From: Candidatus Giovannonibacteria bacterium
GTDB lineage: Bacteria; Patescibacteriota; Minisyncoccia; JACPKW01; UBA11713
Direction: 5' to 3'
Assembly: GCA_016186825.1 (NCBI GenBank)
Contig: JACPKW010000004.1
Coordinates: 130,237 to 194,236 of the forward strand
Length of the DNA: 64,000 nucleotides
A program made the translations under genes and the position numbers. The notes beneath the pieces were generated by a model, which made no database searches, had not been told where the DNA came from, and worked only from the letters and a program-made list of their open reading frames with translations. Positions 3,407 through 53,026 of the stretch are shown here, in pieces (position 1 is the first letter of the stretch; the number at the start of each line of letters is the position of its first letter).

Positions 3407-4284
3407 ATATGAGCAGTTTGGAAAAAATTTTGCATATAGCGTTCAAAGAAAAATGGTCAACAGGCCATTTTAATTTTTCGGAATCCGACCAGCTCCGCGC
3501 AATTTGCGAAGCTGCGGCTGAATTAAAATCTCCGGTGCTTGTGGGAACATCCGAAGGCGAAGCAAAGCACATGGGCTATTTAGAAGCGCGAGCATTGGTA
3601 GATGCTTTCAAACAAGAGCTCGGCGTTCCTATTTTTTTAAACTCCGACCATCATAAAAGCGTCGCGGCTGCTAAACGCGCGATCGACGCAGGGTATGACT
3701 CGATTCACATCGATCTTTCTGCTTCGCCATTCGAAGAAAATGTTCGCGGCACAAAAGAAATAGTTGAATATGCAAATTCAAAATTTTCAATTTTCAATTT
3801 ACAATTTTCAATCGAGGGAGAATTAGGCTATTTAAGGGGGGACTCAAAAATCGAGAAGGAAAAAATTGAAGTTAAAAAAGAAGATTACACAAATCCCGAT
3901 GAAGCCGGGCGATTTGTGCAAAAAACCGGTATTAACCGGCTTGCGATTTCTGTGGGCAACATTCATGGTATTTCTTTGGATGAGCCTGATTTGGATATTG
4001 AATTAATTAAAAAAATTCGCACGGCTTTGCCGGAAAATGTTGCGCTGGTTTTGCACGCGGGATCGGGCATTCCAGATGAAATGATTAAAAAAGCGATCGA
4101 AGCTGGAATTTCGAATATTCATATTAATACCGATATCCGACTGGCATATGCTTCAGCTCTGCGCGCTCAACTCGAGCAAAGCGAAGAGACAACTCCTTAC
4201 AAATTTGATGCGTCTGCGCGCGAGGCTTTAAAAAAAGTTGTGAAGGAAAAATTAGAATTATTCGGATCAGTCAATAGAATATAA
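3400..4284 (+). CDS. fba: class II fructose/tagatose-bisphosphate aldolase
   Basis: Class II FBA motifs LNSDHHKS, GNIHGIS and LHAGSGIPDE. Contains an internal AATTTTC x4 tandem repeat at 3778-3812 encoding SKFSIFNLQFSIE. Confidence 0.8.
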   Translation: MVNMSSLEKILHIAFKEKWSTGHFNFSESDQLRAICEAAAELKSPVLVGTSEGEAKHMGYLEARALVDAFKQELGVPIFLNSDHHKSVAAAKRAIDAGYDSIHIDLSASPFEENVRGTKEIVEYANSKFSIFNLQFSIEGELGYLRGDSKIEKEKIEVKKEDYTNPDEAGRFVQKTGINRLAISVGNIHGISLDEPDLDIELIKKIRTALPENVALVLHAGSGIPDEMIKKAIEAGISNIHINTDIRLAYASALRAQLEQSEETTPYKFDASAREALKKVVKEKLELFGSVNRI

Positions 4285-5263: not shown

Positions 5264-6271
5264 ATGCTCAAAAATAATAAAGGATTATTTTTCTCTCTTA
5301 TTTTTTCTATTGTTTTAATTTTTTTCCTTTGGGGAATAAACATTTTTTTGAATGGATTTTTTGAAAAAGCTTACGTAAATATCGACGGCAACAACAGGGC
5401 AGAAAATCAGGGGGCGCTCGTCTATACAGAAGATTCGGAAATCACACTGGGGTTCGTTGGAGATATCATGCTTGATCGCGGTGTTCTCTACAAACTAAAT
5501 AAATACGGCGGAGGAGATTTCTATTTTCCTTTTTTGAGAATTTACGAAGAGCTGCGCAAATATGATATTCTTTTCGGGAATCTTGAAGGCCCGATTTCTG
5601 ACAAAGGCATAAATCAAGGGTCTATGTATTCTTTTCGAATGGATCCGCGAGCGGCGGATGCTTTGAAATTCGCGGGTTTTGACATTGTTTCGGTAGCAAA
5701 TAATCACGCAAATGATTGGGGACACGAAGCGTATCTCGATACTTTCGCACGGCTGGATTCAGCGGGAATTAATTATGTTGGAGGAGGCGTAAATTTCGAA
5801 GAAGTGTGGAAAATAAAAATAATTGAAAAAAATAATTTGAAAGTTGCTTTTGTAGCCGCGAGCCAGTTTGGGAATCCAAAAAATCTAATGGCCGTGATCG
5901 ATGGAGAAAAAATTAAAGAGGCTTTGAAAGAGGCAAAGGAAAATGCAGATATAGCCGTGATCTCGCTTCATTTCGGGGATGAATACAAGGAGGAGCCGAA
6001 TGATTACCAGCGAAAGATTGCGGAAATGTCTGTGGAAAATGGCGCTGATCTTGTGATCGGGCATCACCCGCATGTAATAGAGAATTTGGAAAAATACAGA
6101 AATTCGTATATTGCATACAGCCTCGGGAATTTTATTTTCGATCAGTATTTCTCTCTAGAAACAATGCAAGGAGGCGTGCTTGATGTCAAAATCAAGAATA
6201 AAAAGATTGAGGGCGCAACTTTGAGGACGGTAAAGCTGAATTCAATGTATCAGCCTGCTTTTGTGGATTAA
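5264..6271 (+). CDS. CapA/PgsA-family metallophosphoesterase with N-terminal TM helix
   Basis: GDIMLDRG, ANNHANDWG and GHHPHV motifs of the poly-gamma-glutamate capsule CapA family. Confidence 0.75.
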   Translation: MLKNNKGLFFSLIFSIVLIFFLWGINIFLNGFFEKAYVNIDGNNRAENQGALVYTEDSEITLGFVGDIMLDRGVLYKLNKYGGGDFYFPFLRIYEELRKYDILFGNLEGPISDKGINQGSMYSFRMDPRAADALKFAGFDIVSVANNHANDWGHEAYLDTFARLDSAGINYVGGGVNFEEVWKIKIIEKNNLKVAFVAASQFGNPKNLMAVIDGEKIKEALKEAKENADIAVISLHFGDEYKEEPNDYQRKIAEMSVENGADLVIGHHPHVIENLEKYRNSYIAYSLGNFIFDQYFSLETMQGGVLDVKIKNKKIEGATLRTVKLNSMYQPAFVD

Positions 6272-21458: not shown

Positions 21459-24400
21459 ATGATTCAAAACTTCCAAAATCCAGAACAGGCGAAAATTGAA
21501 ACAGGTATCTTGAAAAAAGATCTGTTTTCAATCGGAACCAAGCGCGTTCATCCACATCGTGCTTGGAGTTTTATCGCAGTTGCGGTAATGATTTTTTCAG
21601 TGGCGATAACTGCGGCGGGAATTCCAACGATCGATGAAATAACTTATGCGGACGGTATTATTCCGGAAGGAAGCGGACTTAAAGTTCACTGGAAATTTGA
21701 TGAGGGGACGGGAACGACTGCGGCTGATTCATCCGGCAATAACGTAAATGCGTCGCTACTCAACGGCGCAACATTTTCTGCAAGCGGAAAAGTCGGAGGA
21801 GCTTTGAGTTTGGATGGAGTTGATGACTACGCATTAGGAGATAGTGGACAATGGTCGGGAGCATTCACAATTTCACTATGGGTAAAACCGAGCTCGGCTA
21901 GTAACGAAGGTGGAGGAGTATTTGCTTCTTCAAATAACTGGGTTCAAGCAAACACTTTTGAAATTTCAACTGGCGGTAATGGTTGCTATGGTGCTTACAG
22001 ATTTGAAGCTTATGGTAACGGAGGAGGTGGAATCCGAGGCTGTATGGGCGTTTATGGAGCAAACACTTGGACGATGTTGACTGCAACATTCGATGGAAAT
22101 AGAAACGCCATACAGAGCGGAAGTACTGCCAGCATAAAACTTTATAGGAACGGGCAATTTATTGGTTTTGCTGATGGATATCAACAGTTTTCAGGACTTT
22201 TTACCACATATAAATTGGGCCGCGATCGCGGAGGAGAGGTTAATAAATCAAATTATTTTTTCAAAGGCGACCTTGACGAAGTTAGAATTTACAATCGCGC
22301 ACTCTCGACTCAAGAAGTTTTGGATATTTATAATTCGGATAGCGGAACACCCTCTCCGCCTCCTGCGCCGGATACTACTGCGCCGACTGTTCCGTCAGGA
22401 CTTTCTGCTTCAACAATTTCATCTTCACAGATTAATTTATCATGGAGTGCATCGACAGACGCAGTTGGCGTTACAGGATACAAGATATATAGAGGCGGAG
22501 TACAAATTGCAACCTCAAACACAATTTCATATTCTGATACCGGACTTACTGCTTCTACATTATATTCATACACTGTTGCCGCATACGATGCGGCGGGAAA
22601 TACATCGGCGCAGTCTTCAAGCGCTAGCGCAACGACGCAGGCTTCCTCTCCAACTCCTACGCCAGATACAACAGCTCCTTCAGTCCCCACAGGGCTTAGC
22701 GCTACTGCAGTTTCTTCTTCACAAATTAATCTCTCTTGGACTGCTTCTACGGACGCTGTAGGCGTAACCGGATACAAGATATATAGAAGCGGAACGCAGA
22801 TTGCTACATCAAACACAACTACATATTCAAATATAGAGCTTTCTGCATCTACTTTATATTCCTACACTGTTGCTGCTTATGACGCGGCGGGAAATACATC
22901 GGCGCAGTCGGGAAGTGCGAGCGCGACAACACAAGCTTTTGTTCCATCAACTTATTCCGTCTGTGTCCCAAGAGGAACAGTTGATCCGACTTATCGTTGG
23001 GATAAATTAAATATTTATAAAGATGCAAACGGGCTCGAACATCCAACGGCTTCAAGTTACACTTTTTTAAAAACAGATCAAACCAGCCAGATCGCCATTG
23101 ATACTGCAAGAAATGTCCAAGTCGCTTTCATTAGCGGCGTAACAATGGAAGCGCCTGTAGGAACAGAAAATTGGACAGTAGTGCAAACACAAACTTGCCC
23201 ATCTGCGCGCTGGGCAGGAGCGATGGCTTATGATTCTTTAAATAAAGAAATGGTGCTTTTCGGCGGAACGCTTTCTATTGCGGGTCCAACAAACGACACT
23301 TGGATTTATAATACTGTAAGCCGCGACTGGACAAAGCTTGATCCCGGATCCGCAAGTCTTCGCGATCTGCGCGCAAAAGTTGCTTTAATCGGCGAAAATT
23401 TAGAAACACTTCGTTGGAATTTATGGAAAACTTTGGAATGGAAAACTACTGGAAAAACAGGCGCGATGAGCGAGTCCGCTTTGAACTCCGATCTTTCTCA
23501 AATTAAAATAAATGTTTCAATTGCAAGTGACTTAGCTTCTATTCAGTCAACAACTATCACAGACACTTATGAAAAATCACAAGTAACCGGAGTAAGCACT
23601 TGGCTTATAAGCGCTGAAACTAAACTTGCGAGCATCGGAAGCGGAATTTCCGGCGGAACTTTAGCTGGGCTTGAAACAGATTACCGCTCAATTATTTCAT
23701 TACAGAATGATATCGCAAGCGCAAAATATGCAGTTAATGCGGGGCCGACATCAAGATATTTCATTAGTTTAAATTACGATGCTTCCCAGAACGGTTTTAC
23801 AATCGCAAGTACGGTTGGTGCGAGTTATAGTGAAAATTGGCTTTATTCTTTAGCAAGAAAGCGCTGGGAAAGGAGCAATCCCATAATTGGATCTGCAACA
23901 ACTTTATCGCAGCCAACCGGAGAATTTGTTCTTCGCGACAATGCTACAGTCTCAAATCTTCAGAGCTGGAAAACATCAACAGATAATTGGAAAAATTCTA
24001 TTCAACCAAATACATGGATGATCGCTCCAACTAACGGCACAGGACGTCCAAATTGGGGGCGCACTTGGAGTTCTATTGTTTACGATCCTGATCGCCAGCA
24101 AATTTATTACCGCGACGGGGGGCATGGAAGTTATCATGGAAGTGTAACGGATCACTACGACATATTAACTGGACGCTGGTTTAGAAGCGACTGGGCATCA
24201 GCGCCCGACTCAAGAATCATAGGTTCTTATTTCGGCTGGGGACGCGATTACAACTATGCTCCTTGGGCTATTCACAATTACAAGAGATCGCTTTTTTATA
24301 ATCCCTTCACTGAAAGCCTCAATAGATATGTTATTTTTGGACCAGATGCGGCGGGAGGAATGAATGACTATAATCCTGATCAAGGTAAATGGTCTAAGGA

Positions 24401-27400
24401 TATATTGACTTCAGTTCCCTCGAATGTACCTGCCGTGCCTGATGGATTTATATTTGTTGACGGTTGGGAAAGGTATAGTTCTAGACCGACTACAAAAGTT
24501 TATTATACAACCTCAACAGGGATGAAAATTTGGGATGATACGGGCAGGTTGCCTTATCCAGTTGATTTCGACGTAGTTCTTTCGCTCTTTTTTAATCCCA
24601 CAACAAAAAAACTTTATTATTATGGCGGAAGCGATGCAGAATTGGGAGTTTATTCATTAGATCTTTCTCTTGCCAATCCGCGCTGGGCAAAGCTTTCAGC
24701 TACAGTTCGCGGAGGTGGATCGCTACCCTTTCCCAGTCGGGAAGTTACATACATTCCAAAATACAATGTTTTTTTAATGCTTGAAGGCTGGTCTGATTAT
24801 AATGACACGCGCCCTCCTCAAGTTTGGGTTTTTGATCCAAATATTAACGAGTGGTCAAAAATGAATATGTCCTATGGATCAGGAGTTATAGTTGGGCAAT
24901 ATCCTGGAAATCTAAATCCGATGGGAATTTCTAGCGGACTTGCATATGATAATATCAACGACCTCGCATTTTACATAACCGGAACTGGGCAAGGAGGCAC
25001 TCCCTCGCTTTTTACATTTCGGTACGCTCCTTCCGATTTAACAGCGCCGAGCGCGCCAACAAATCTTTCGGCAACTCCCGCTTCCGATACTCAAATAAAT
25101 TTGGCATGGAGCGCATCATCGGATTCTGAATCGGGAATTTTGAAATATAATGTTTTTCGCAATGGCACGCTTGTTGCGAGCCCAAACACAAATTCATATT
25201 CCGACACCGGGCTTATCGGCGGAACTTCATACACATACCAAGTTTCCGCAGTCAACGGAGTTTTGCTTGAGTCTGCAAAAAGCGCTTCTGTATCGCAATC
25301 TACTTTTACGGATATTTCCCCTCCAACCATTGTTTCGGCCGCAGCTTCCGATTCTAGTTCCGTTTCTGTTATTTTCAGCGAACCTGTTGAACAAATAAGC
25401 GCGACACAAATTTCAAATTATGGAATTAGTAACGGCATAACGATTTCTTCTGCTTCGCTTGGCGCTGACCTAAAAACTGTTACTCTATCGGTCTCTTCTT
25501 TAACAGCGGGTACAAGTTACGTTTTAACGGTCAGCAACGTAAAAGACCGCGCTTCTCTTCCGAATACAATTTTGGCTAATTCGCAAACAAGTTTTACGTT
25601 TACATCTGGACTCGTAGCGCATTGGAAATTTGATGAAGGAGCGGGTTTTGTAGCCAGCGACTCATCAGGAAGCAACAACACTGGTAACATCAGCGCGGCA
25701 ACTTGGACTTCCGGAAAAATAGGGCAAGCCTTAAGCTTTGACGGATCAAGCAGTTACGTTGACTTTGGAAATCCATCCTCACTAAAAATTACCGGAAGCC
25801 AGACAATCTCAATATGGCTTTACCCTACCGACTTTTCACAAAGGAGAAATCCAATTTCGAAAGCTTATGGCGGCGAAGGAACCATTACAGTTGAAACGGA
25901 CGGAACTGTTAATTATTTCTACGGCACCTGCGGTGGGGATTGCACCCCTTATCAAGGGTTTACAATGACAAGCGCTCTTACGGCAAATAGTTGGACGAAC
26001 TTAGTTCTTGTCCGCGATTTAAGCGCGATGAAACTACGATGGTACAAAAACAGTGTTTTAATTAACGAGTCAACCGCAAATTACTCAAGTGCCGTAGCTT
26101 CAGCAAGTTCATTGCTTGTTGGCAAAGGTTACGTTTATAATTTCGCAGGAAATATTGATGATATAAGAATTTATAATCGCGCTTTAAGCATCGCAGAAGT
26201 GCAAAGTATTTATACAAGCGTGCCTGCGCCGGTGCCTGATACCATAGCGCCTTCGGTTCCAGCTGGTCTTACAGCAACTGCGATTTCGTCTTCCCAAATA
26301 AATCTTTCGTGGGCCGCTTCCACGGATAATGTTGCGGTAACAGGTTACAAAATTTACAGGGGAGGAGTACAAATTGCAACTTCAAACACAACTTCGTATT
26401 CAAATATTGGGCTTACTGCTTCTACATTATATTCCTACACTGTTGCAGCCTATGATGCGGCTGGGAATACTTCTGGACAGTCGGGGAGTGCGAGCGCTAC
26501 AACATTAGCCGTGGGACAAGTTGATATTACATCGGGGCTAGTTGGACATTGGAAGCTGGATGAAACTTCCGGAATATCCGCAGCGGATTCTTCAGGAAAT
26601 AGTAATAATGGCACCATTTCAAATGGTCCTCTTTGGGCATCTGGAAAAATAAATGGGGCACTAAAAATGGATGGTGTTGATGATTATGTTACAGTTTCAA
26701 ACTCGGCAAATTTAAATCCCGCAGTAATTACTTTATCAGCGTGGATTAATCCTGCGACAATCGCGCAAGAACAGAAGCCAATTATTTTAAAATCTTACAC
26801 TTCGCATGTCTCGCCTTACTATCAGTATTATTTGTTTTGGTATAATACTGCTACTTACCCGAATACTATTGCATTTGGCATAAACGTTAACGGTTCTTTG
26901 GCTGGCGCCGCTAAATCCAATGCTTTTACTCCGCCGGGATGGCATTTGGTAACAGGGACTTTTGACGGAAGCGCCTCAAAACTTTACGTCGATGGCGTTG
27001 AAGCAAGTTCGGCTAATGTTTCAGGATCTTTGACTAGTTACCCAACAGAATTACATTTCGGTCGATATAGAAATATTGCTACCGATTCAATTCATAATTT
27101 CGCGGGTTCAATTGATGATATTAGAATTTATAATCGAGCGTTAACAGCGGCCGACGTTCAGGCGCTCTATGCTACAGCTCCTCCGCCCGCATACACGTTC
27201 TCACTTTCAAACGGCGGAACAAAAAGCATAGTTCAAGGTTCGTTTATTTCAAATTCAATCACGGCAACTCTTTCTTCGGGAATTGGACAACCAATAACAT
27301 TTTCGGCTTCTGGTCTTCCGCAAGGCGCAAGCCATAGTTTTAGTTCAACAAGTTGCACGCCGACATGCGCGACAAATCTAACTATCAGCACGACGGCAAC

Positions 27401-30400
27401 GACTCCGCCCGGAACTTACAATATTGTTGTCTCCGGAACAGGTTTGGAAGGCACAAAATCAACTTCGTTTTCGCTTAATGTGTCAACCGCTCCCACAGAT
27501 CCTTCAACTGCGCCGCCTTTACCTGCGGGAAGCATTCAGGTGCCGCTTACGGTGAAAGAAGCATTGCCCGCAGGAATTTCCGGAATGTCTAGAACCTCTG
27601 AATTAGTTTCTGTCGGTATTCCGCTTCCTGAAAATAGCGGAGCAATCAGCACTTCGCAACTCGGACTTTCCGGAACAACTGCCGGACAATTTAGAACTCT
27701 CGCCAAATGGCCAAACGGGAACATTAAATGGGTGCTTGCGGATTTTCTGGCGAGCGTTTCGGCCGGAGGAACAACGAACGTCAGTTTAACGACTGGAGCA
27801 GGAAATTTTGGAGGAACGAATTTAGCCGCGGATAATGGCAATACGATAAATATAAATACCGGACCGGCACAATTTGTAATTAAAAAATCAAATTTCAATG
27901 TTTTCGACAGCGTGATAATCAATGGGCAAACTCTGGTAAACACAGGAAACAACGGTAAGTTGGTTATGCGCGATTCTTCAGATAACGAATATAATTCCTC
28001 AAATGATCCGTTCTCTGCGGCAGTCATTGAAGAAAATGGTCCAGTGAAAACAGTAATAAAAGCAGCAGGATCATTCAAAGATTTAAACGGAACGCGGCTT
28101 GCCGGATATACTTTGCGGATGACTTTTTACAAAGGCGATGCTTCCGTTAAAACCTTGTTTGCAATTACGAATTCGGACGTTGCAAGTCGAGCCCACACTA
28201 ATTTTAACAGCGTAGAAGCTGTTGTTCCGATAAACATTGGCGTTACTAAAATAGCTGAATACGCAACGAAAGTTGGAAGCACATCTGGAAATATCTCATC
28301 TGGAGAAACATCTTACCTATTTCAAGGGTACAGTCTTGATAAATTGGATGCCAGCGGACGAGATTGCTTTAACTGGAAACCACCTGTGCCCGGAACGTGC
28401 GATTCGAATTTTACATATCAATACGATCAGTCTAAGGCTGGTCTTGAAATAAAAATAGGTCAGAATACTGCCAATGTTTTGGGAAATCAAAGTGATTGGA
28501 CCGGAGGATGGGGCGAGTTGCGCGACTCATCCGGAAAAGGAGTGAGCATGGCTTACCGCTGGATGTCTTCCTACTGGCCGTCGGGTTTTGAAATGAAAGG
28601 CGATGGCAGTACTTCTATTGAAATATTTTCCAAACGGAACACAAAAAAGGGGCTGACTCTCGTTTTTGGGAAGCATGAAGCGAGAGAAATAATCTGGGAT
28701 TTCCATTCTGCGGCAGGAAATAATCAAAAGACCCTCTATAAATTGCAGTATCCGCTAATCGCCCAAGCGCCATTTTCACATTACCAAAATACTAAGGCCA
28801 TTTTTGGACAGGACGAATTTGTAACTCCCGCAGAGCAAACTAAATTTTTTACGGACATGGGAAAATCGACATGGGCGCCTAATCTTGGCAATCTTTCCAT
28901 GTATCGTATTTATCGGTCGATCGGTTGGGGGACTGGAGGCGGAGGCAATCAAACAGATTTTCCGTTAAATGACTTGCAAGACTTTTTAAGAACAGGAAAC
29001 CCGGGATTTTATCTTTTGGGCGAGCAAAGAACGTTGTTCAACAATACAGCATTTGTAAGAACTGACAACGGTGGAGTTCCATCTGGATTTGATCCAGAAC
29101 CAAGCTGGTCTTCTAGTATTAATGGCAGTTTCATTGACATGGAACACGCACATGTTTTATCCACTCCTTTTTATTACTTACTAACGGGAAATGAATGGAT
29201 AAAGGAAGGCTTTTTGGATTATGGAGATTATCTAGAGTACACCGAAACAGGATGGAAATATTATGCGATGCCAACAAATCCTTGGAATCGTTCTTGGGAT
29301 AGAAAATTACGCAACATGGCGCTTCTGTACGAATTTTCATGCCAGACTGGAAACTGCAACACAAAATATCGCGATTATCTTACAAACTGGATGGATTATT
29401 ATTTAAGTTCTCGCGATAACCCTTCCAACAAGTACGTACATGGGCGAAACATTGAGCGTGGATATCGGTATTGGGCCTATCCTTGGGCTGAAGATATCGG
29501 TTTGCGTCCAGTACAAGCTTTAACAGATGTCCAGATTCACTTTGAAGCGATGTATCAAGCACTTCGTGTGATGGAAGACACGGCTGTAACTTATTTGCGT
29601 CAAGAAGAATTGGAAGATTATTTGACTGGACTTTCGCAGTTTATATTCAACGAATATTATGACGAGATAAATGGCGGTGATGCTCTCGAGGAATTCGGAT
29701 TTATGTATGGATATCCATTAGACAGCGCCTCAACTATAAATGGCGGCAATTACTGGCTGACACTTGCTCCCTACGACGCATCTCGACCCGCTTTTTGGGG
29801 TTATCAAAAAACCGGAGATGCCTCGATGCTTACTAAAGCAAATAAGTTAATATGGGCAATTACAGAATATGCCACAGGCCGCAGTCCGTCGGAACTTCAG
29901 GATCAGGCTTTGATGTACACTCATTTCAACCCTCCCGCAACATGGAAACCGCTTTCTGTTTCAGCCGCAAACAACGGGGGCGGTTCATACACGCTTTCTT
30001 GGAATGTTCCCGCAGGCACAACGAAGTATCAAATTAAATATTCACCCAAACCGATTGTTGAATGGCTTGGATTCAATAAAGTTACGAGAACATATCAATA
30101 CGATCCTGCCCAATATACCGCTTTCTTTGCCGCGACAAATATTTCAAACGAGCCTGCGCCGCTTTCTAGCGGAACTCAAACATTCACACTCTCCGGCCTT
30201 TCCTGCGGATCTAATTGTTACTTTGCAGCGAAATATTATGACGGAGAAGTGGGATCTGTTACACCGCCTCCATCTGATACTCAAGCGCCTACAATCCCGA
30301 CAAATCTATCTGCTACCGCAATTTCTTCTTCCCAAATTAATCTTTCTTGGACCGCCTCCACCGATGCAGTTGGCGTAACTGGATACAAAATATATAGAAG

Positions 30401-33200
30401 CGGAGTTCAAATCGCAACTTCAAACACAACTTCATATTCTGACACTGGGCTTGCTCCGTCGACCGCATATTCATATACAGTTTCGGCATTCGATGCGGCT
30501 GGCAACAACTCTTCGCAATCAACAAGCGCAAGTGCAACAACGCAACCGGCGTCTGTTCCCGTAGATACCACCGCTCCTGTTATTTCAGGAATATCATCTT
30601 CTGGAATTACATCTTCTTCTGCAAATATTTTGTGGAACACAAACGAGATGTCTACGCACCAAGTCGAATACGGGCCAACTGCTTCCTATGGACAGTTAAC
30701 CACAGAAAATACGGCAATGATGACTTCTCACTCCGAAACAATTTCGAATCTTCAGTCTGGCTCAACATACAACTTCCGCGTAAAGTCCAAAGATGCCGCA
30801 GGAAATCTTGCAATCTCCTTAAATTCGAGCTTCAAGACTTTGAATGCTCCGGATAACATTCCACCAAATGCGATAAGCAATCTTTCGTCATCCGAGATCC
30901 AAACAAATTCTCTCAAGCTTTCTTGGACTTCGCCCGCAGATCCGCCTTCGAATTCAGCCGCGGACAAATATGATATCCGATACTCTATGAGCTTGCTTGG
31001 CGAATCAAATTGGCAGCAGGCTACCAGAGTTACCGGAGAGCCCGCGCCAGCCTCGCCCGGAGCCAATCAATCATATATTTTGGCTGGGCTCGCTCCACAG
31101 ACTACATATTATATTGCAATCAAATCTTCGGATGCGAAAAATAACGATTCGGCGCTCTCAAATGTATTACAAATTACAACTTTAGCTTCCGAACCTCCGC
31201 CCGCTATTCTTTCAGTGTCGCCGATTACTGCAAACATCCAGGACGTAAATTCTACTTTGCCGGGCGTCCAGTTCTACGAAGGAATGACGGTCAGATATTC
31301 TTCTTCTGCTTCGGGGCATGCGTCTTGGGAGTGGCTGTATTCGGTCAACAACGGAACACCAATTTCGTATCTTAAGGGCACAGGCAATGTGGAAGATGCC
31401 ATGTTCAAATATCCTTCAGGCAGTGCGGGAACTTCATACAAATGGATTTTCAGAGCTTCAAGTGGGACACAAATTAAAGAAGAGGCTCTCGATGTTTCGA
31501 TTATTTCTAGGCAGACTGGGACAAATCCAGCAGTTATTTCAAATATCGCTTTCGATATCGGACAAACTAGCGCAACTGTTACTTGGGAAACCGATATTCC
31601 TGCCTCCACTCAATTGGAATTCGGCGCACATAATCTTCTCGGCTCCCTGTCGCCTGAACTAAATTCGACCTCTTTGGTAACCGCGCACTCTGTGACTTCT
31701 TCAAATCTTATTCCTTGCGCCCGTTATTACTTCCGCGTCCGTTCGCGCGATTCTTCCAATAACATTTCCGCTGGCGCTCCATATTCATATTCTACCAAAG
31801 GCTGTCTTGGCGGGGCTGATGTTGCATCAAGCACAGAAAAACTTATCCGGCGCGCCGAAGGCGGAACGATCAAGCAGAAAGATAAGGGCTCTGGTTTGAC
31901 GATCACTGCTCCGATAAATTTTGCCTCCGATGATGCGGTATTCCAAATTCAAAAGCTTTCTAATAAAGTTTTCAGCACCGCGCAACTTCCTCAAAACAAA
32001 AAATTAATCGGCGATCACATATATGAATTGAAAGCTCTCTCGGATTCTTCTGTGGCAATTTCAGCTTTTGCTGATTCGCTCACGCTCACAGTCAAATATA
32101 ATTCTGCTGATCTGGGGAATATTAATCCTTCTACACTCCGGCTTTACCGCTGGGTATCTTCAAGTAACTCCTGGCAGGTTCTGTCGTGCACTGAAAGCAC
32201 TGCAGATGCTCAAGTGATCTGTTTGACAAATTCATTTTCATCATATGCTTTGCTCGGCGATGAAACGCAAACAACTGGAGGCGGGGGATCTTCGGGTGGC
32301 GGAACTTCAAGCGGGGGAGGAGGTATTATTATGCAAAGCGTTTCTGCTCCAGCCTCCTTCAAAGCTATCGGCGCCCCGAACCAGATTATTCTTTCCTGGT
32401 CTAATCCTAAAGATGCAAATTTTGTCCGCGCGCGCATTATTAAAAACCAAAACAGGGTTCCTCTTTCCGCAAATGACGGGGAAATAATATATGAAGGCGC
32501 AAAAGAAGAATTTATTGATACGAACGTAACTCTCAATGCCGTTTATAATTATGGCGTCTATGCGCTAGATCGGAATTTAAATGCCTCTGCGCTTTCGACA
32601 CTTATCGTTAAGGCTGGCGAAAAGAGCGAAGCAGACGCCCTTAAAGCTTTGAGCCAAATTGTTTCTGCCTCGAAAGTGACTGCACCAGTGACTTCCCCTG
32701 GGGCGTTATTAACTGGTCCTTTTGCTTTCGGTATTCGAAGCGAACAAGTAAAAATTCTTCAGGAATGGCTCGCGCGCGACAAATTGATCTATCCAGAGGC
32801 AAAAATCACTGGCTATTACGGCCCCGCAACATTTGCCGCAGTCAAACGCTTTCAGAAGAAATATGGAATTGCCCAAATTGGAATCGCAGGCCCCAAGACC
32901 AGAATGAAATTGAACGCACTTTATAATTCATCAGTAGTGTCCACACCTGAAGCGCCAAGTTCGAGCGAGACAATTATACTTCTCCGCGGTCCATTTTACC
33001 TCGGTGCCAGAGGTAATGAAGTTAAAGTGCTCCAGCAGCTGCTCGCGAAAGATAATGCCATTTATCCGGAAGGACGCGTAACTGGATATTACGGAGCACT
33101 TACATTTCAAGCTGTGAAAAGATTTCAGGCTAAATATGGAATTTTACAAACAGGAATCGCAGGGCCTAAAACCAGGGCTAAACTAAACGAGATATATTAA
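21459..33200 (+). CDS. giant surface protein (3913 aa): divergent N-terminal anchor module, 3 LamG domains, at least 5 fibronectin-III repeats, Kelch-like propeller region, unassigned ~800-aa central region, Gly-rich linker, two C-terminal peptidoglycan-binding (PG_binding_1-like) domains
   Basis: [24 protein letters not shown] anchor. LamG domains recognised by HWKFDEG...[10 protein letters not shown], three times. FN3 repeats [26 protein letters not shown]...AAYDAAGN. Tandem C-terminal LxGPFxxGxRxxxVKxLQxxLA...YGPATFxAVKRFQxKYGI repeats. Confidence 0.85.
   Translation: [3913 protein letters not shown]
22369..22640 (+). repeat. intragenic FN3-encoding DNA repeat, copy 1 of 4 (~270 bp, high identity)
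   Basis: Near-identical nucleotide blocks (ccggatactac...gcaacgacgcag) recur at 22663, 26235 and 30274. Confidence 0.7.
22663..22937 (+). repeat. intragenic FN3-encoding DNA repeat, copy 2
   Basis: Same block as copy 1, translated [44 protein letters not shown]. Confidence 0.7.
26235..26507 (+). repeat. intragenic FN3-encoding DNA repeat, copy 3
   Basis: Translated [57 protein letters not shown]. Confidence 0.7.
30274..30548 (+). repeat. intragenic FN3-encoding DNA repeat, copy 4
   Basis: Translated [60 protein letters not shown]. Confidence 0.7.
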
Positions 33201-33220: not shown

Positions 33221-33958
33221 CTAGTCTGGTTTTTCCAAAGCGTTTTTTTCGAACGCTTTGACAATCGGACCTAGATCGCCGTCGAGCATGCGCTCGATAT
33301 TATGAAAGCTTTTCTTTATGCGGTGATCCGTGATCCGATCCTGCATAAAATTATACGTGCGGATTTTTTCTGAACGGTCCTGTGTTCCGATCTGCTCGCG
33401 GCGTTCTTTTGAGAGCGCTTCGGATTCTTTGCGATTTTTTTCGTCGAGAAGTTTTGCGCGCAGAACCCCCAGCGCCTTTTCCCTGTTTTTTTGCTGTGAA
33501 CGCTCTTCGCGGGAGGAAACCACGATTCCAGTTGGTTTGTGGAGAATTCTTACAGCGGACTCAACTTTGTTTACATTTTGGCCGCCTGGACCGCCTGCGC
33601 GCGAGAAAGTAACCTCGAGATCGGATTCTTTCACCTCGATTTCTTTTTCCGCGGCGGCTTTTAAAATTGCGACAGAGGCAGTAGAGGTATGAATTCTGCC
33701 CGACTTTTCTGTTTTTGGAATCCTCTGAATGCGATGCACTCCCGATTCCTGCTTAAGCGATTTCCATACGTCCGGACCGGAAATTTCAGCGACAACTTCT
33801 TTATAGCCTCCGAGGTCGCTTTTGGATTCATCAAGCAGTTTGAAAGACCACTGCCTGCTTTGAGAAAAATTTTGGTACATTCTTAAAAGCTCTCTCGCAA
33901 AGAGAGAGGCTTCCTGACCGCCTGCACCGGCGCGTATTTCCAAAATTACAGTCTCCAT
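33221..33958 (-). CDS. prfA: class I peptide chain release factor, RF1-like but lacking N-terminal domain 1 (245 aa)
   Basis: GGQ motif [11 protein letters not shown]. The RF1-type tripeptide region [14 protein letters not shown] aligns with PxT. The protein aligns with RF1 residues ~115-360. Its start ATG overlaps the rpmE stop (TAATG). Confidence 0.75.
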
Positions 33959-35972: not shown

Positions 35973-36422
35973 ATGCCGATTTCAGCTGATCTTATCCAAA
36001 AACTTCGCACGGAAACTGGGGTTTCCGTTATGGCATGCAAAAGGGCATTGGAAAGAGCGGAAGGAGATTTGGCAAAAGCGCTCGAATATTTAAAGGAAGA
36101 AGGTGCGCTCTTGGCTTCAAAGAAATCAAGCCGCGAAACGAAGGCGGGCATAATCAGCTCTTACGTTCACGGCGGAAAAATCGGCGTTCTCGTAGAATTA
36201 AAGTGCGAAACTGATTTCGTTGCTCGCAATCCTGAATTCCAAAATTTCGCGCGTGAGATTGCCATGCAAATTGCGGCTGTTAATCCAGTCGATCTTTCTG
36301 AATTGCTCGAGAGCCTATATATTAGAAAATCCGATGTGAAAGTTTCGGAATGGCTTCGAGAAATGATCCAGAAATTCGGCGAGAACATCGAAATCGCTCG
36401 TTTTTATAGACTCGAACTTTAA
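35973..36422 (+). CDS. tsf: elongation factor Ts (short form)
   Basis: LRTETGVSVMACKRALERAEGDLAKALEYL UBA-like N-terminus, then VLVELKCETDFVARN. Confidence 0.85.
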   Translation: MPISADLIQKLRTETGVSVMACKRALERAEGDLAKALEYLKEEGALLASKKSSRETKAGIISSYVHGGKIGVLVELKCETDFVARNPEFQNFAREIAMQIAAVNPVDLSELLESLYIRKSDVKVSEWLREMIQKFGENIEIARFYRLEL

Positions 36423-36898
36423 TGATTTCGCTCTACATTTTTGGTATTTTATTTTTGGGCTCTTTATTCGGTCTCCTGTTTATTTTTTTCAGGCGCTTTG
36501 CCGAAGTCGGCCGAATGGATCAGGCAGAGCTTCATATTGGGCTTCGATCTACCCGCTCTCTTAGGAAGCAATTAAAAGAAAATTATCTCATTCCGTTCTT
36601 TAACAGGATAAAAAACACACTCCAGCCTTTTTTTTGGGGATTGATTGAGCGCATGCTTAAAAATCTGCGCTTGCTACTTTCACGTTTTGACAATAAATTG
36701 AAGGAACTTTCAGACGCAGTCCGTGGTAAGCACATTAATATAAAGTTTAAAAAACGAACGGAATATTGGGATGATCTGAACGGAGCAAAGAAAAATGGCA
36801 ACGTGATCGCTAAAGGTATTATCGAGAACGGATATAGGTCAGAAAAAATAGACAGTAAAACAGAAAATTCTGACGCAATTTCTCTAGAACGAAAGTAA
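36422..36898 (+). CDS. hypothetical membrane protein
   Basis: N-terminal TM helix, no recognisable motif. Confidence 0.5.
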   Translation: MISLYIFGILFLGSLFGLLFIFFRRFAEVGRMDQAELHIGLRSTRSLRKQLKENYLIPFFNRIKNTLQPFFWGLIERMLKNLRLLLSRFDNKLKELSDAVRGKHINIKFKKRTEYWDDLNGAKKNGNVIAKGIIENGYRSEKIDSKTENSDAISLERK

Positions 36899-36914: not shown

Positions 36915-37099
36915 GCCACCTTAGCTCAGCGGTAGAGCAACGGTTTTGCGCGCCCCGTTAGAAAATGATTGCCGGGGTAGCTCAGCGGTAGAGCAACTGT
37001 TTTGTAAACAGTAGGTCGCGAGTTCAATTCTCGCTCCCGGCTCAATAAAGATTTTCTAACGGGGTAAATAGGTCCTCGGTTCGAATCCGAGAGGTGGCT
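36915..37099 (+). other. tRNA-like 5' half (acceptor + D-arm + anticodon loop UUUGCGC) and tRNA-like 3' half (variable loop + T-arm + acceptor) with perfectly complementary acceptor strands, enclosing tRNA-Thr(UGU) inside a 9-bp helix
   Basis: 5' GCCACCU...GCUCAGCGGUAGAGCAACGGUUUUGCGC at 36915-36953. 3' AGGUCCUCGGUUCGAAUCCGAGAGGUGGCU at 37070-37099. CCCCGUUAG (36955-36963) pairs with CUAACGGGG (37055-37063). The anticodon 3' strand is missing, so no canonical cloverleaf. Confidence 0.4.
36971..37043 (+). tRNA. tRNA-Thr (anticodon UGU)
   Basis: GCCGGGG/UCCCGGC acceptor (G7-U66), D-arm GCUC-AGCGGUA-GAGC, anticodon arm ACUGU-UUUGUAA-ACAGU, T-arm GCGAG-UUCAAUU-CUCGC. CCA is not encoded. Confidence 0.8.
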
Positions 37100-48206: not shown

Positions 48207-48280
48207 ATAATATAATATTCTCTAATAAAAGCTTATTAGGGCTTTTTTGTTTTGTGACGTATTTGCGCTTTAAATTTTAA

Positions 48281-48467
48281 TATGCGTGGGTGGCGGAGTG
48301 GTCAATCGCATCCCGCTGTAGGCGGGACGACCTGCCATTTAGCTTAAAGAGAGTTAAAATTTATTGTTTATATATGCGTGGGTGGCGGAGTGGTCAATCG
48401 CATCCCGCTGTAGGCGGGACGACCTGCCATTTAGCTTAAAGAGAGTTAAAATTTATTGTTTATATAT
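48281..48467 (+). repeat. two tandem ~91-bp direct repeats, each beginning with the first ~27 nt of tRNA-Tyr (5'-fragment pseudo-tRNA), then a CCCGC-UGUAG-GCGGG hairpin
   Basis: Units at 48281-48371 and 48372-48463 are identical. GCGTGGGTGGCGGAGTGGTCAATCGCA is identical to the 5' end of the intact tRNA-Tyr at 48468. Confidence 0.75.
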
Positions 48468-48555
48468 GCGTGGGTGGCGGAGTGGTCAATCGCACGTGGC
48501 TGTAAACCACGCGCCCTGACGGGCTACGTAGGTTCGAATCCTACCCCACGCACCA
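48468..48555 (+). tRNA. tRNA-Tyr (anticodon GUA), long variable arm, CCA encoded
   Basis: Acceptor GCGUGGG/CCCACGC, anticodon arm CGUGG-CUGUAAA-CCACG, variable stem GCCC/GGGC, T-arm GUAGG-UUCGAAU-CCUAC, discriminator A, then CCA. Confidence 0.8.
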
Positions 48556-48594
48556 ATATCAAACTTTCCGATTTTTGCCCGACCGATTCGGCCG
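48554..48594 (+). repeat. 41-bp direct repeat, left copy, abutting the tRNA-Tyr 3' end
   Basis: CAATATCAAACTTTCCGATTTTTGCCCGACCGATTCGGCCG is identical to 51336-51376. Confidence 0.75.
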
Positions 48595-48811
48595 AGCGAG
48601 GCGAGGCGAACCTTTCAAACTTGAGAATTCCTTTCTGAGGCAGTATTCTTGAATTAGTCCGAACCCCGGTAGTAAAGCAAAGCTTACTACGGGGCACGTC
48701 GCATTTCTCCGCCTGCGACGGTGAGGAAGTCCCCCCAGCGAATCCGCCAGCTGGCGGACGGAAAGGCGGCGGCTTGTCCTGAGCGAAGTCGAAGGGAGCC
48801 GCACCGCTCAA

Positions 48812-48934
48812 AACCGCCAAACCTGCCTGCCGGCAGGCAGGGAACCCGTTAAAAACATCGGCTCGAATCATATTTTAATTTTGGGGGAAGAAAATTTTTA
48901 ATCATATAGTCGAAAATTATTAAATAATAAAGAA
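48812..48934 (+). promoter_or_regulatory. recurrent GC-rich upstream element, copy 1: CCGCCAAA + 20-nt perfect palindrome CCTGCCTGCCGGCAGGCAGG (48822-48841) + conserved AT-rich leader ending ...AAAATTTTTAATC
   Basis: The same ~100-bp module precedes the ORFs at 48935, 49747 and 50465. Confidence 0.6.
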
Positions 48935-51159: not shown

Positions 51160-51192
51160 TGCCGCCAAACCTGCCTGCCGGCAGGCAGGGAA
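51160..51192 (+). repeat. recurrent element, truncated copy 4 with perfect palindrome, followed by GC-rich sequence related (partly inverted) to 48700-48790
   Basis: GCCGCCAAACCTGCCTGCCGGCAGGCAGGG. Downstream GCCGCCTTTCCG is the reverse complement of CGGAAAGGCGGC at ~48770. Confidence 0.55.
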
Positions 51193-52900: not shown

Positions 52901-52974
52901 GCCTGGGTAGCTCAGGTAGATAGAGCATACGCATGGTAAGCGTAAGGTCGGCGGTGCAAGTCCGCCCCCAGGCT
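52901..52974 (+). tRNA. tRNA-Thr (anticodon GGU)
   Basis: Acceptor GCCUGGG/CCCAGGC, anticodon arm UACGC-AUGGUAA-GCGUA, T-arm GGCGG-UGCAAGU-CCGCC. Confidence 0.8.
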
Positions 52975-53026
52975 CAAGTGTAAAACTTTTCTTGATTCGG
53001 GTTTTTGGTAGAATATAATTAAGTCA

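Follow-up and report, generated by a model that had tools for sequence, protein, structure and literature searches.

Positions 36,915 to 37,099 of the DNA analysed here (the window, a 64-kb stretch of contig JACPKW010000004.1 of a Candidatus Giovannonibacteria bacterium) contain a complete gene for a threonine transfer RNA, tRNA-Thr(UGU), at 36971-37042, flanked by the two halves of another, broken tRNA gene. An earlier note, made from the letters of the sequence, had described a complete tRNA-Thr between two tRNA halves, and all the parts were found where the note had placed them; the inner gene is called both by ARAGORN and by Rfam. We will refer to the broken gene as the outer gene and to the DNA splitting it as the insert. 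Other loci used for comparison are designated by numbers starting with L. The features of the locus are the following:

36915-36948, + strand: outer 5' remnant, positions 1-35 of the resident tRNA-Thr(UGU) (sequence reading and comparison with L008 and L041)
36915-36921, + strand: outer acceptor 5' strand GCCACCU, followed by U8 and A9
36924-36938, + strand: outer D arm GCUC-AGCGGUA-GAGC, followed by A26
36940-36944, + strand: outer anticodon-stem 5' strand ACGGU (sequence reading)
36945-36948, + strand: part of the outer anticodon loop, U32-G35 (UUUG; sequence reading)
36949-36951, + strand: CGC, the first three bases of the insert, unpaired in the fold (RNAfold)
36952-36966, + strand: left arm of the bracketing helix, GCCCCGUUAGAAAAU (RNAfold minimum free energy and centroid structures, covariation, RNAalifold)
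36967-36970, + strand: leader GAUU, 4 nucleotides (nt) between left arm and inner tRNA (sequence and fold; 0-4 nt and of variable sequence elsewhere)
36971-37042, + strand: inner intact tRNA-Thr(UGU), 72 nt, cargo of the insert (ARAGORN; Rfam RF00005, 71.8 bits)
37043-37050, + strand: trailer CAAUAAAG, 8 nt between inner tRNA and right arm (sequence, fold, alignment)
37051-37064, + strand: right arm of the helix, AUUUUCUAACGGGG, end of the insert (fold, covariation, RNAalifold)
37065-37099, + strand: outer 3' remnant, starting with UAAAU where the intact gene has UAAACCGU, CCG missing (comparison with L008 and L041)
37070-37074, + strand: outer variable loop AGGUC (sequence reading)
37075-37091, + strand: outer T arm CUCGG-UUCGAAU-CCGAG (sequence reading)
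37092-37098, + strand: outer acceptor 3' strand AGGUGGC, complementary to the 5' strand at 7/7 positions
37099, + strand: outer discriminator U (sequence reading)

The outer 5' remnant, spelled out, is GCCACCU-UA-GCUC-AGCGGUA-GAGC-A-ACGGU-UUUG, and the insert (36949-37064, 116 nt) splits the resident gene between G35 and U36. The inner gene, which has no encoded CCA, scored 71.8 bits with RF00005 (threshold 29), was identified by ARAGORN as tRNA-Thr(UGU) and is presumably the working gene. The outer gene was called neither by ARAGORN, intron models included, nor by Rfam at E <= 10. When ARAGORN was run with intron models, as the earlier note had proposed, default stringency returned the inner tRNA only; a tRNA-Leu(UAA) with a 99-nt intron, which appeared at very low stringency, was rejected for its poor anticodon stem. 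The two halves are collinear, lie on one strand and are 116 nt apart, which differs from the separate loci or reversed order of split and permuted tRNA genes. No promoter-like site was found within the insert, and a promoter scan of the region gave results no better than chance. The nested arrangement is not a mis-assembly, because both junctions were recovered exactly in Logan assemblies of other sequencing runs: contigs with the left junction (L001, L002) and with the right junction (L006) match at 100% identity and overlap within the inner tRNA.

In the structure predicted by RNAfold the outer acceptor strands are paired 7/7, the inner tRNA forms its cloverleaf, and the flanks of the inner tRNA are joined by a helix of 15 bp; the fold of a 206-nt region had a z value of -4.7 relative to shuffled sequences. 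The helix is formed by 36952-36966 (GCCCCGUUAGAAAAU) and 37051-37065 (AUUUUCUAACGGGGU) and consists of 14 Watson-Crick pairs and a G-U pair, with U37065 able to pair with G36952 and so close the helix. Several earlier observations were borne out: the complementarity of the outer acceptor strands and the presence of D and T arms by sequence reading and RNAfold, the lack of a canonical fold for the outer gene by the missing ARAGORN and Rfam calls and by an anticodon stem with 3/5 pairs in the joined exons. The perfect helix that had been described exists, at a length of 15 instead of 9 bp. The 21 identical nucleotides counted after position 7 of the inner and outer tRNAs are actually 20, or 26/27. 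The loop UUUGCGC, taken for one of UGC type, is a coincidence made up of U32-G35 of a UGU loop and the CGC of the insert; the apparent UGC anticodon arises because UUUUG runs straight into these bases. Recognition by alanyl-tRNA synthetase (AlaRS) requires G3:U70. The outer gene as an Ala/UGC tRNA was ruled out, as it has no G3:U70 and its exons are those of tRNA-Thr(UGU); position 37 of the supposed loop varies among C, G and U across loci.

Judged by sequence comparison, the outer gene is the tRNA-Thr(UGU) resident at this locus downstream of rpsB-tsf, because its exons match the normal genes of L008 and L041. At this locus L008 has a single normal tRNA-Thr(UGU), with which the outer gene agrees in all of its first 27 and last 31 bases (the match of the last 31 bases is counted through C37100, one base beyond the discriminator), far more than chance would give. 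The L041 gene, GCCACCTTAGCTCAGCGGCAGAGCAACGGTTTTGTAAACCGTAGGTCCTCGGTTCGAATCCGAGAGGTGGCT, is uninterrupted, has the CCG and otherwise equals the outer gene of the window bar one D-loop base, which is the single difference over the 34 nt of the 5' part. An empty-site allele of the resident gene would read GCCACC...ACGGTTTTGTAAACCGTAGGTCC. Comparison of orthologous loci had been suggested by the earlier note; we reached them in eight related lineages by synteny look-ups with EF-Ts homologues. Five of the eight (L008-L010, L011-L013, L041, L043, L045) have one ordinary tRNA-Thr(UGU) directly after a small open reading frame (ORF), the other three have a nested arrangement, and two adjacent ordinary tRNAs were not seen. 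A crude tree of these lineages, built from S2 and EF-Ts, was star-like, and the three nested lineages did not cluster. In L007, the nearest relative (EF-Ts 74% identical), a tRNA-Thr 5' part is followed by ACGGUUUUGCCCGCCC... and an inner tRNA-Thr(UGU).

The outer tRNA is preceded by a 158-aa ORF (36422-36898), which ends 16 nt before it. We discarded this ORF both as a marker of the lineage and as a candidate enzyme, since among 5.8 billion clustered proteins this orphan has no homologue except itself. At its place the relatives have an unannotated ORF of 113-180 aa. Upstream of the normal tRNA-Thr(UGU), L045 (3880-3958) and L046 (2930-3007) contain degenerate pieces similar to the beginning of a tRNA-Thr acceptor (GCCGGAGUAG), to a T arm and to an anticodon loop (GAUUUUGUAAAA); these may be much older remnants at the same locus.

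Removal of the insert does not restore a tRNA in the window. After precise removal the outer exons would read ACGGUUUUG^UAAAUAGGUC (also written ACGGUUUUG^UAAAUAGGUCCUCGG), i.e. ACGGU-UUUGUAA-AU-AGGUC, with UAAAU in place of UAAACCGU. Because CCG is missing from the joined exons, there is no canonical anticodon stem: ARAGORN forces a stem with 3/5 pairs and shortens the variable loop and the T stem, and it gave no call for the joined exons of five other loci with the same type of junction. As written or after removal of the insert, the outer gene lacks the four arms of a tRNA with its 5-bp anticodon stem. Elsewhere the outer genes are in various states of decay. L039, whose acceptor stem is the same as that of the window, has lost the T arm and G18 G19 of the D loop; the outer acceptor stem of L016 is paired at 4/7 positions; and the outermost layers of L015, L018 and L020 have mismatches and odd loops. 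Extra inserts and mismatches are most numerous in the deeper-lying outermost layers. L019 has two left halves whose right halves are gone, and L022 and L025 have lone 5' fragments. The outer gene of the window is very probably not functional, because its exons do not rejoin to a tRNA, one intact copy is always kept, outer layers decay, halves occur without a partner, and the helix arms of one locus (L026, see below) are mismatched. The T loop UCCGAAU of the L021 outer gene was not used as a sign of decay, since intact tRNAs of these bacteria also have unusual T loops. The idea that the outer ACGGU had been replaced by co-conversion with the insert was dropped, because the normal gene of L041 already has ACGGU/ACCGU.

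The same architecture was found in about 20 loci of distant Patescibacteria, which come from different studies and were assembled by different assemblers. A genome scan with the left-junction query GAGCAACGGTTTTGCNCGCCC yielded 10 loci, nine of them labelled Patescibacteria (Vogelbacteria, Jorgensenbacteria, Saccharibacteria-labelled bins and unclassified Parcubacteria) and the tenth in a bin labelled Gammaproteobacteria; all ten have a tRNA-Thr 5' half, the common insert start and an inner tRNA-Thr(UGU). A two-junction pattern added five loci from Joint Genome Institute (JGI) metagenomes, and the nested loci L007 and L039 were found via synteny. We will call the common unit a cassette. It consists of an unpaired YNC, a left arm starting with GCCCCGUYA, a leader of 0-4 nt, a complete tRNA-Thr(UGU), a trailer of 0-8 nt and a right arm ending with URACGGGG. 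The first trinucleotide is C[C/G/U]C in eight aligned cassettes and UUC in L039.

The junctions are of two types. In window-type loci (L014, L015, L018, L020, L023/25, L024, L026, L027/28, L039) the 3' exon reads UAAAUAGGU and CCG is absent; in the second type (L016, L021, probably L007) the insert starts with CCCGCCCGCC and the 3' exon has an intact UAAACCGU. We defined the cassette family by five features: insertion directly after UUUUG of a tRNA-Thr(UGU) loop, the YNC-GCCCCGUYA start, the URACGGGG end, an intact tRNA-Thr(UGU) as cargo, and the 3' junction UAAAUAGGU. All five are present in the window, L014, L015, L018, L023/L025, L024, L026 and L027/L028, with L039 as a near match. Nesting is two to four layers deep in L015, L018, L020, L022 and L027, and in nine loci the nested genes sit at the conserved position downstream of rpsB-tsf. 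ARAGORN, applied to 16 loci, found a single intact tRNA-Thr(UGU) in each, and this was always the innermost copy. Further inserts, GC-rich hairpins, are frequent in the D loop, T arm or acceptor stem of outer layers, and in L018 a cassette with the same arms (CCCGCCCCGUUA.../...UAACGGGG) lies in the T loop and carries tRNA-Thr(GGU). In the literature, of which our coverage was incomplete, no description of bacterial tRNA genes nested in tRNA genes was found, which is absence of evidence only.

Some details of these extra inserts deserve mention. Outer tRNA-Thr genes of L014 (~890-1130), L022 (~5560-5880), L007 (3210-3255), L024 and L027 contain additional GC-rich hairpins of 30-70 nt (CCCGCCCG...CGGGCGGG), which sit exactly between D loop and D stem or within the T stem. 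L024 and L027 have in common a second conserved insert after the D arm, ending with AGACAAAYNGGGAAC. On the reverse strand of L018 (~3650-4090) the outermost tRNA-Thr remnant is broken at the acceptor stem, the D arm, position 35/36 of the anticodon loop and the T loop.

The bracketing helix is conserved as a helix. Across eight window-type cassettes the 13 arm pairs are 97% paired, and five of them have changed on both sides (e.g. UUAGAA/UUCUAA, UUACAA/UUGUAA, UCACCC/GGGUGA, UCACAA/UUGUGA). The covariation score was reached by none of 500 shuffles, the signal was lost when the partner strand was slid, and RNAalifold recovered the helix together with the inner cloverleaf. The invariant core of the arms was part of the search patterns, thus covariation is unbiased in the distal part only; the 3' junction is also unbiased in the five loci found by the left-junction pattern alone. 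These data point to selection for pairing of the arms. In L026 the match between the two arms is confined to the 9-bp core; further out they diverge, as if they came from different cassettes. The helix adjoins the inner acceptor stem, separated from it by the short leader and trailer. It may help to free the cargo tRNA, or to fold it correctly, among its look-alike flanks, it may be a processing site for a double-strand RNase, or it may act as a DNA hairpin used in mobility.

The inner and outer genes have different affinities. The inner tRNA of the window is 93% identical to the inner tRNA of L014 and 92% to that of L027, and 74% and 79% identical to the resident genes of its relatives L008 and L011, respectively; it differs from the resident-type gene at 23 of 73 positions. 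The outer gene is 93% identical to the L008 gene. EF-Ts identity to the window ranks the hosts the other way: 74% for L007, 69% for L008, 68% for L011, 45% for L015 and 39% for L027, whose S2 is 38% identical to that of the window (the L014 locus, labelled Vogelbacteria, includes neither EF-Ts nor S2). Where measurable, the common insert ends occur in hosts with 33-48% EF-Ts identity to the window's. Because the ranking of the inner tRNA opposes that of the host proteins, whereas the outer gene follows the host, the comparison supports the view that the cassette is horizontally mobile and enters resident genes. The sequence CGCCCCGT occurs once only in the 64-kb window, with no dispersed copies there, and the junctions show no target duplication, instead 3 nt of the target are missing. 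The junction of an excised or circular cassette would read ...CTAACGGGG^CGCGCCCCGTTAG....

Clustering of the neighbouring ORFs of 15 loci revealed in common only the syntenic S2, EF-Ts, L31 and RF1 and no recombinase or nuclease, and 20 window ORFs compared with Pfam were housekeeping genes without nuclease, integrase or transposase. Possible donors and integration mechanisms were also considered. A scan of viral contigs with the arm pattern gave 10 chance matches with no tRNA inside, and in BLAST searches of phage and plasmid collections the inner tRNA alone had matches, which were ordinary tRNA-Thr genes. A tyrosine-recombinase attachment (att) site at the junctions is not supported: the arms do mimic AACGG/CCGTT of the anticodon stem, but the putative overlap regions are not identical.

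We think it likely that in the window a resident tRNA-Thr(UGU) gene was freshly disrupted by a small hairpin-ended cassette carrying tRNA-Thr(UGU), a member of a recurrent, horizontally moving family in Patescibacteria. Disruption by an insertion carrying tRNA-Thr was one of three explanations offered by the earlier note, and it is the one that agrees with our findings. The 116-nt cassette would have entered the anticodon loop between G35 and U36, and the 3' strand of the anticodon stem would have lost CCG. Such an insertion would be tolerated because the cassette supplies a working copy of the very tRNA that it destroys. Since each new copy would offer the same target again, repeated invasions could build up nested, "Russian-doll" loci, whose outer layers decay. 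Cassettes would be transferred between genomes at the DNA level. At the RNA level the inner tRNA is probably transcribed through the outer 5' half, the whole composite using the upstream signals of the resident gene. In the transcript the arms and the inner acceptor stem could form a single long stacked helix; RNase P and a 3' processing enzyme would free the inner tRNA, to which CCA would then be added, and the outer pieces would be by-products.

A number of observations do not fit easily into this picture. No transposase, integrase or homing endonuclease was found beside any locus, nor a target-site duplication, and no donor form was found in the viral, phage or plasmid collections. CCG is lost identically in insertions that look independent (window, L039, L014, L018, L025, L027). 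The outer halves of the window are pristine, with 7/7 acceptor pairs and perfect D and T arms, as functional exons would be. This could reflect a recent insertion. Elsewhere, too, 7/7 acceptor pairing persists in several outer genes, although they contain one to three additional inserts. When the insert is taken out of L021, a locus of the second junction type, a perfect tRNA-Thr(UGU) results. The covariation of the arms indicates selection on the helix, which is also what an RNA-level role such as splicing would predict. Finally, tRNA position 35/36 is a documented group I intron site in Patescibacteria (PMC13011429).

Several of these points belong to the strongest competitor, a true intron: a protein endonuclease would cut at the base of the helix and the exons would be ligated, in a bacterial counterpart of archaeal splicing, while RNase P and Z would free a second tRNA-Thr from the intron, so that one transcript gives two tRNAs-Thr. 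The unpaired trinucleotide YNC exactly at the 5' junction, the covarying helix, the intact and complementary outer exons in the window and several other loci, and the location at 35/36, a known intron site in this phylum (PMC13011429), would all suit such an intron, and so would the placement of the GC-rich hairpin inserts of other outer genes, from which the exons could rejoin, and L021, where they do join to a perfect tRNA-Thr(UGU). We nevertheless regard it as unlikely. An intron or otherwise processed tRNA, the first possibility raised by the earlier note, is unsupported in the window, where UAAAU stands in place of the required UAAACCGU, and in every locus with its junction type the anticodon stem of the joined exons is short of CCG. 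For the window, this argument goes only as far as a tRNA without CCG in that stem is unable to work. Each locus retains one uninterrupted gene for this isoacceptor, which would be needless were the outer genes working; some outer genes have no T arm (L039) or are missing halves (L019, L022, L025), and the L026 arms match over the 9-bp core only. There is no bulge-helix-bulge (BHB) motif, and the window ORFs scanned, which represent part of one genome, included neither a splicing endonuclease nor RtcB. The broader form of this idea, that Patescibacteria possess a protein-dependent tRNA splicing new to Bacteria and that the GC-rich, helix-ended inserts at the anticodon loop, D loop, T loop and acceptor stem of tRNA-Thr genes, with or without cargo, are genuine introns, has in our opinion an equally small chance; in that case at least the L021-type variants would give a functional tRNA, and with the cargo freed from the intron one gene would produce two tRNAs.

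We consider it quite unlikely that the locus arose by a local, non-mobile rearrangement, i.e. by tandem duplication followed by deletion or template switching, with the arms originating from a hairpin-mediated replication error. The agreement of the inner and outer genes at 26/27 bases in the D-arm region could be read in this way, the arms contain ACGG and CCGU, words of the outer anticodon stem, and the tandem truncated 5' parts of tRNA-Tyr elsewhere in the window (see below) indicate that tRNA fragments do arise locally. A duplication remnant, as also proposed earlier, does not fit, however: the inner tRNA, which differs from the resident type at 23/73 positions, is 92-93% identical to the inner tRNAs of distant hosts. 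Insert ends of the form YNC-GCCCCGUYA ... URACGGGG-UAAAUAGGU recur in unrelated lineages, in hosts with 33-48% EF-Ts identity, and the L018 cassette with the same arms lies in a T loop and carries tRNA-Thr(GGU).

The composite RNA might itself be functional. After the inner tRNA has been cut out, the helix (15 bp) and the acceptor stem (7 bp) could hold the outer pieces together, making a tRNA-like RNA of two parts; or the outer fold could be a cis-acting scaffold for processing or folding, or a decoy that attracts elements integrating into tRNA-Thr genes. We find this very unlikely: the predicted fold is stable and includes the long helix together with the outer T arm and acceptor stem, the arms covary, and several loci have an intact outer acceptor stem, D arm and T arm, but the outer parts can be dispensed with (L039 has lost its T arm, L019 its right halves), conservation outside the arms does not exceed that of any tRNA-Thr gene, and no Rfam family matches. 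An assembly chimera of the tRNA-Thr genes of two strains is hardly credible: Logan contigs do break within the region, as expected where genomes have k-mers in common, but both junctions were 100% identical in independent runs with contigs overlapping in the inner tRNA, and about 20 loci from unrelated studies and assemblers have the same architecture.

It is instructive to compare the cassette with other elements that reside in stable-RNA genes. The closest published case is that of the group I introns in anticodon loops of Patescibacteria tRNAs. Those at position 35/36 in tRNA-Asn and in tRNA-Asp self-splice (Nakagawa et al. 2026, PMC13011429), and group I introns in tRNA anticodon loops of this phylum were also described by Williams (2020, bioRxiv 10.1101/2020.01.27.920355). 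They are like the cassette in phylum, in the anticodon-loop target, in position (35/36, or 34/35 if the boundary is moved by one base) and in that the interrupted genes escape standard tRNA finders. In contrast to them, the cassette has no catalytic core, 72 of its 116 nt are tRNA, and the exons of the window do not rejoin to a working tRNA, a spare gene taking the place of self-splicing. Group I introns are typically at least about 200 nt long and have a conserved P3-P9 core that RF00028 detects; the insert had no Intron_gpI match even at E <= 10 and matched no ribozyme or other Rfam family. The group I rule of U before the 5' splice site and G as last base can be satisfied with a boundary shift of one base (UUUU|G...G|GUAAA), a weak and non-specific agreement.

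Archaea have transposing introns, in Thermoproteales, and split or tri-split tRNAs. We know of no archaeal intron that carries a complete tRNA of the same isoacceptor. Like the cassettes, archaeal BHB introns are short helix-forming inserts at anticodon, D and T loops, several may occur in one gene, and there is evidence of their movement between tRNA genes; a passage in PMC10714607, citing Fujishima et al. (2009, 2010), has them as thought to transpose in this way. The cassette differs in that its host is bacterial, the outer genes decay and an uninterrupted copy is always kept. A BHB motif consists of a 4-bp helix between two bulges of 3 nt, one on either strand, located at the splice sites; in the window there is one unpaired CGC 5' of a continuous 15-bp helix and no second bulge, hence the motif is absent.

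Prophages and genomic islands integrate into tRNA genes and restore them with a 3' part of their own; an article by Williams in Nucleic Acids Research in 2002 is reportedly an example for such integration by islands. In both cases mobile DNA in a tRNA gene supplies replacement tRNA sequence and tRNA pieces mark the event, but the cassette is only 116 nt long and has no integrase, brings a complete tRNA and not a 3' segment, is flanked by 5' and 3' remnants without a displaced 3' repeat, and nests recursively. The neighbours of the insert are rpsB, tsf, a small ORF and an oxidoreductase, and no recombinase is common to the loci. Miniature inverted-repeat transposable elements (MITEs) and repetitive extragenic palindromic (REP)-like sequences are small, non-coding, bounded by inverted repeats and without an enzyme of their own. 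All this applies to the cassette too: like MITEs and insertion sequences it has terminal inverted repeats, the 15-bp arms, with a core (GCCCCGUYA/URACGGGG) common to loci. It differs from MITE and REP elements in having neither a target-site duplication nor dispersed copies in the 64-kb window, in distal arms that covary instead of being fixed in sequence, in its strict preference for tRNA-Thr and in carrying a functional gene. The intervening sequences of bacterial rRNA are excised by RNase III without religation, and the fragmented rRNA still works. They are, like the cassette, helix-forming inserts in stable-RNA genes, with the stem as a possible processing site; a tRNA cut in the anticodon loop would, in contrast, fail, and function is supplied by the cargo tRNA.

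If insertion of a mobile cassette is the correct explanation, it would be a third way for an element to inhabit an essential tRNA gene, by bringing a full spare copy, besides self-splicing (group I introns) and restoration of the 3' end (integrating islands). The nested layers would be explained as a record of successive invasions, and the cassette would be a marker of horizontal DNA exchange among ultra-small, host-dependent bacteria, the host of the window coming from groundwater. For annotators it would mean that halves of a tRNA flanking another tRNA are, in these genomes, real and no assembly errors. The findings raise the question by what enzyme or recombination pathway the tRNA-Thr(UGU) anticodon loop is targeted, and whether the covarying helix serves DNA mobility or RNA processing.

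The genes in the neighbourhood of the locus encode RF1, L31, a HAD hydrolase, S2, a short EF-Ts, the small ORF, an NADH-type oxidoreductase, an IscR-like regulator and IscS. The RF1 (PCRF/RF-1) ORF (33221-33958, minus strand) is 245 aa long; its counterparts have 230-262 aa in relatives and 398 aa in L022, and it may be a shortened release factor or an ORF with a mis-set start.

Other tRNA genes of the window and of the loci compared also have unusual surroundings. As a result of a 92-nt tandem repeat (48276-48494, 2.4 copies, 99% identical), the real tRNA-Tyr(GUA) at 48468-48552 has two truncated copies of its 5' part upstream. Each copy agrees fully with the real gene over its first ~27 nt (up to about position 26, standard numbering) and continues with a different anticodon arm, UCCCG-CUGUAGG-CGGGA, and an AU-rich spacer. 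They are orphan left halves, like those of the Thr loci, but no right halves are in view. Directly after the tRNA-Tyr there are ~300 nt of GC-rich non-coding DNA (48556-48870), in an AT-rich genome, with long hairpins and a GAGGAAGUCC-like word; Rfam gave no match to this segment at E <= 1. It includes the palindrome CCTGCCTGCCGGCAGGCAGG (48822-48841), which occurs again at 51170-51189 and, in near-identical form, within broken tRNA genes of L019 and L024. A tRNA-Thr(GGU) called by ARAGORN at 52901-52975 falls short of the Rfam gathering score for tRNAs; its D loop (AGGUAGAUA) is enlarged and its T loop is UGCAAGU instead of UUCRAAU. T loops with UGC or UCC are also found in intact tRNAs elsewhere (inner genes of L017 and L026). 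L019 contains, at ~2430-2760, broken tRNA-Trp-like 5' parts with GC-rich hairpin inserts, adjoining an ORF with a GIY-YIG-like motif (..YIGYSDDLKRRLAEHKSQK..); its intact tRNA-Trp is at 2893-2966.

Two protein-coding genes of the window may be added. A 3913-aa ORF at 21459-33200 has, judged from its translation only, repeated fibronectin-type and lectin-like segments and C-terminal peptidoglycan-binding-like repeats, and the 180-aa protein encoded at 62227-62766 matches the PaaX central Cas2-like domain (Pfam E = 3.6e-22).

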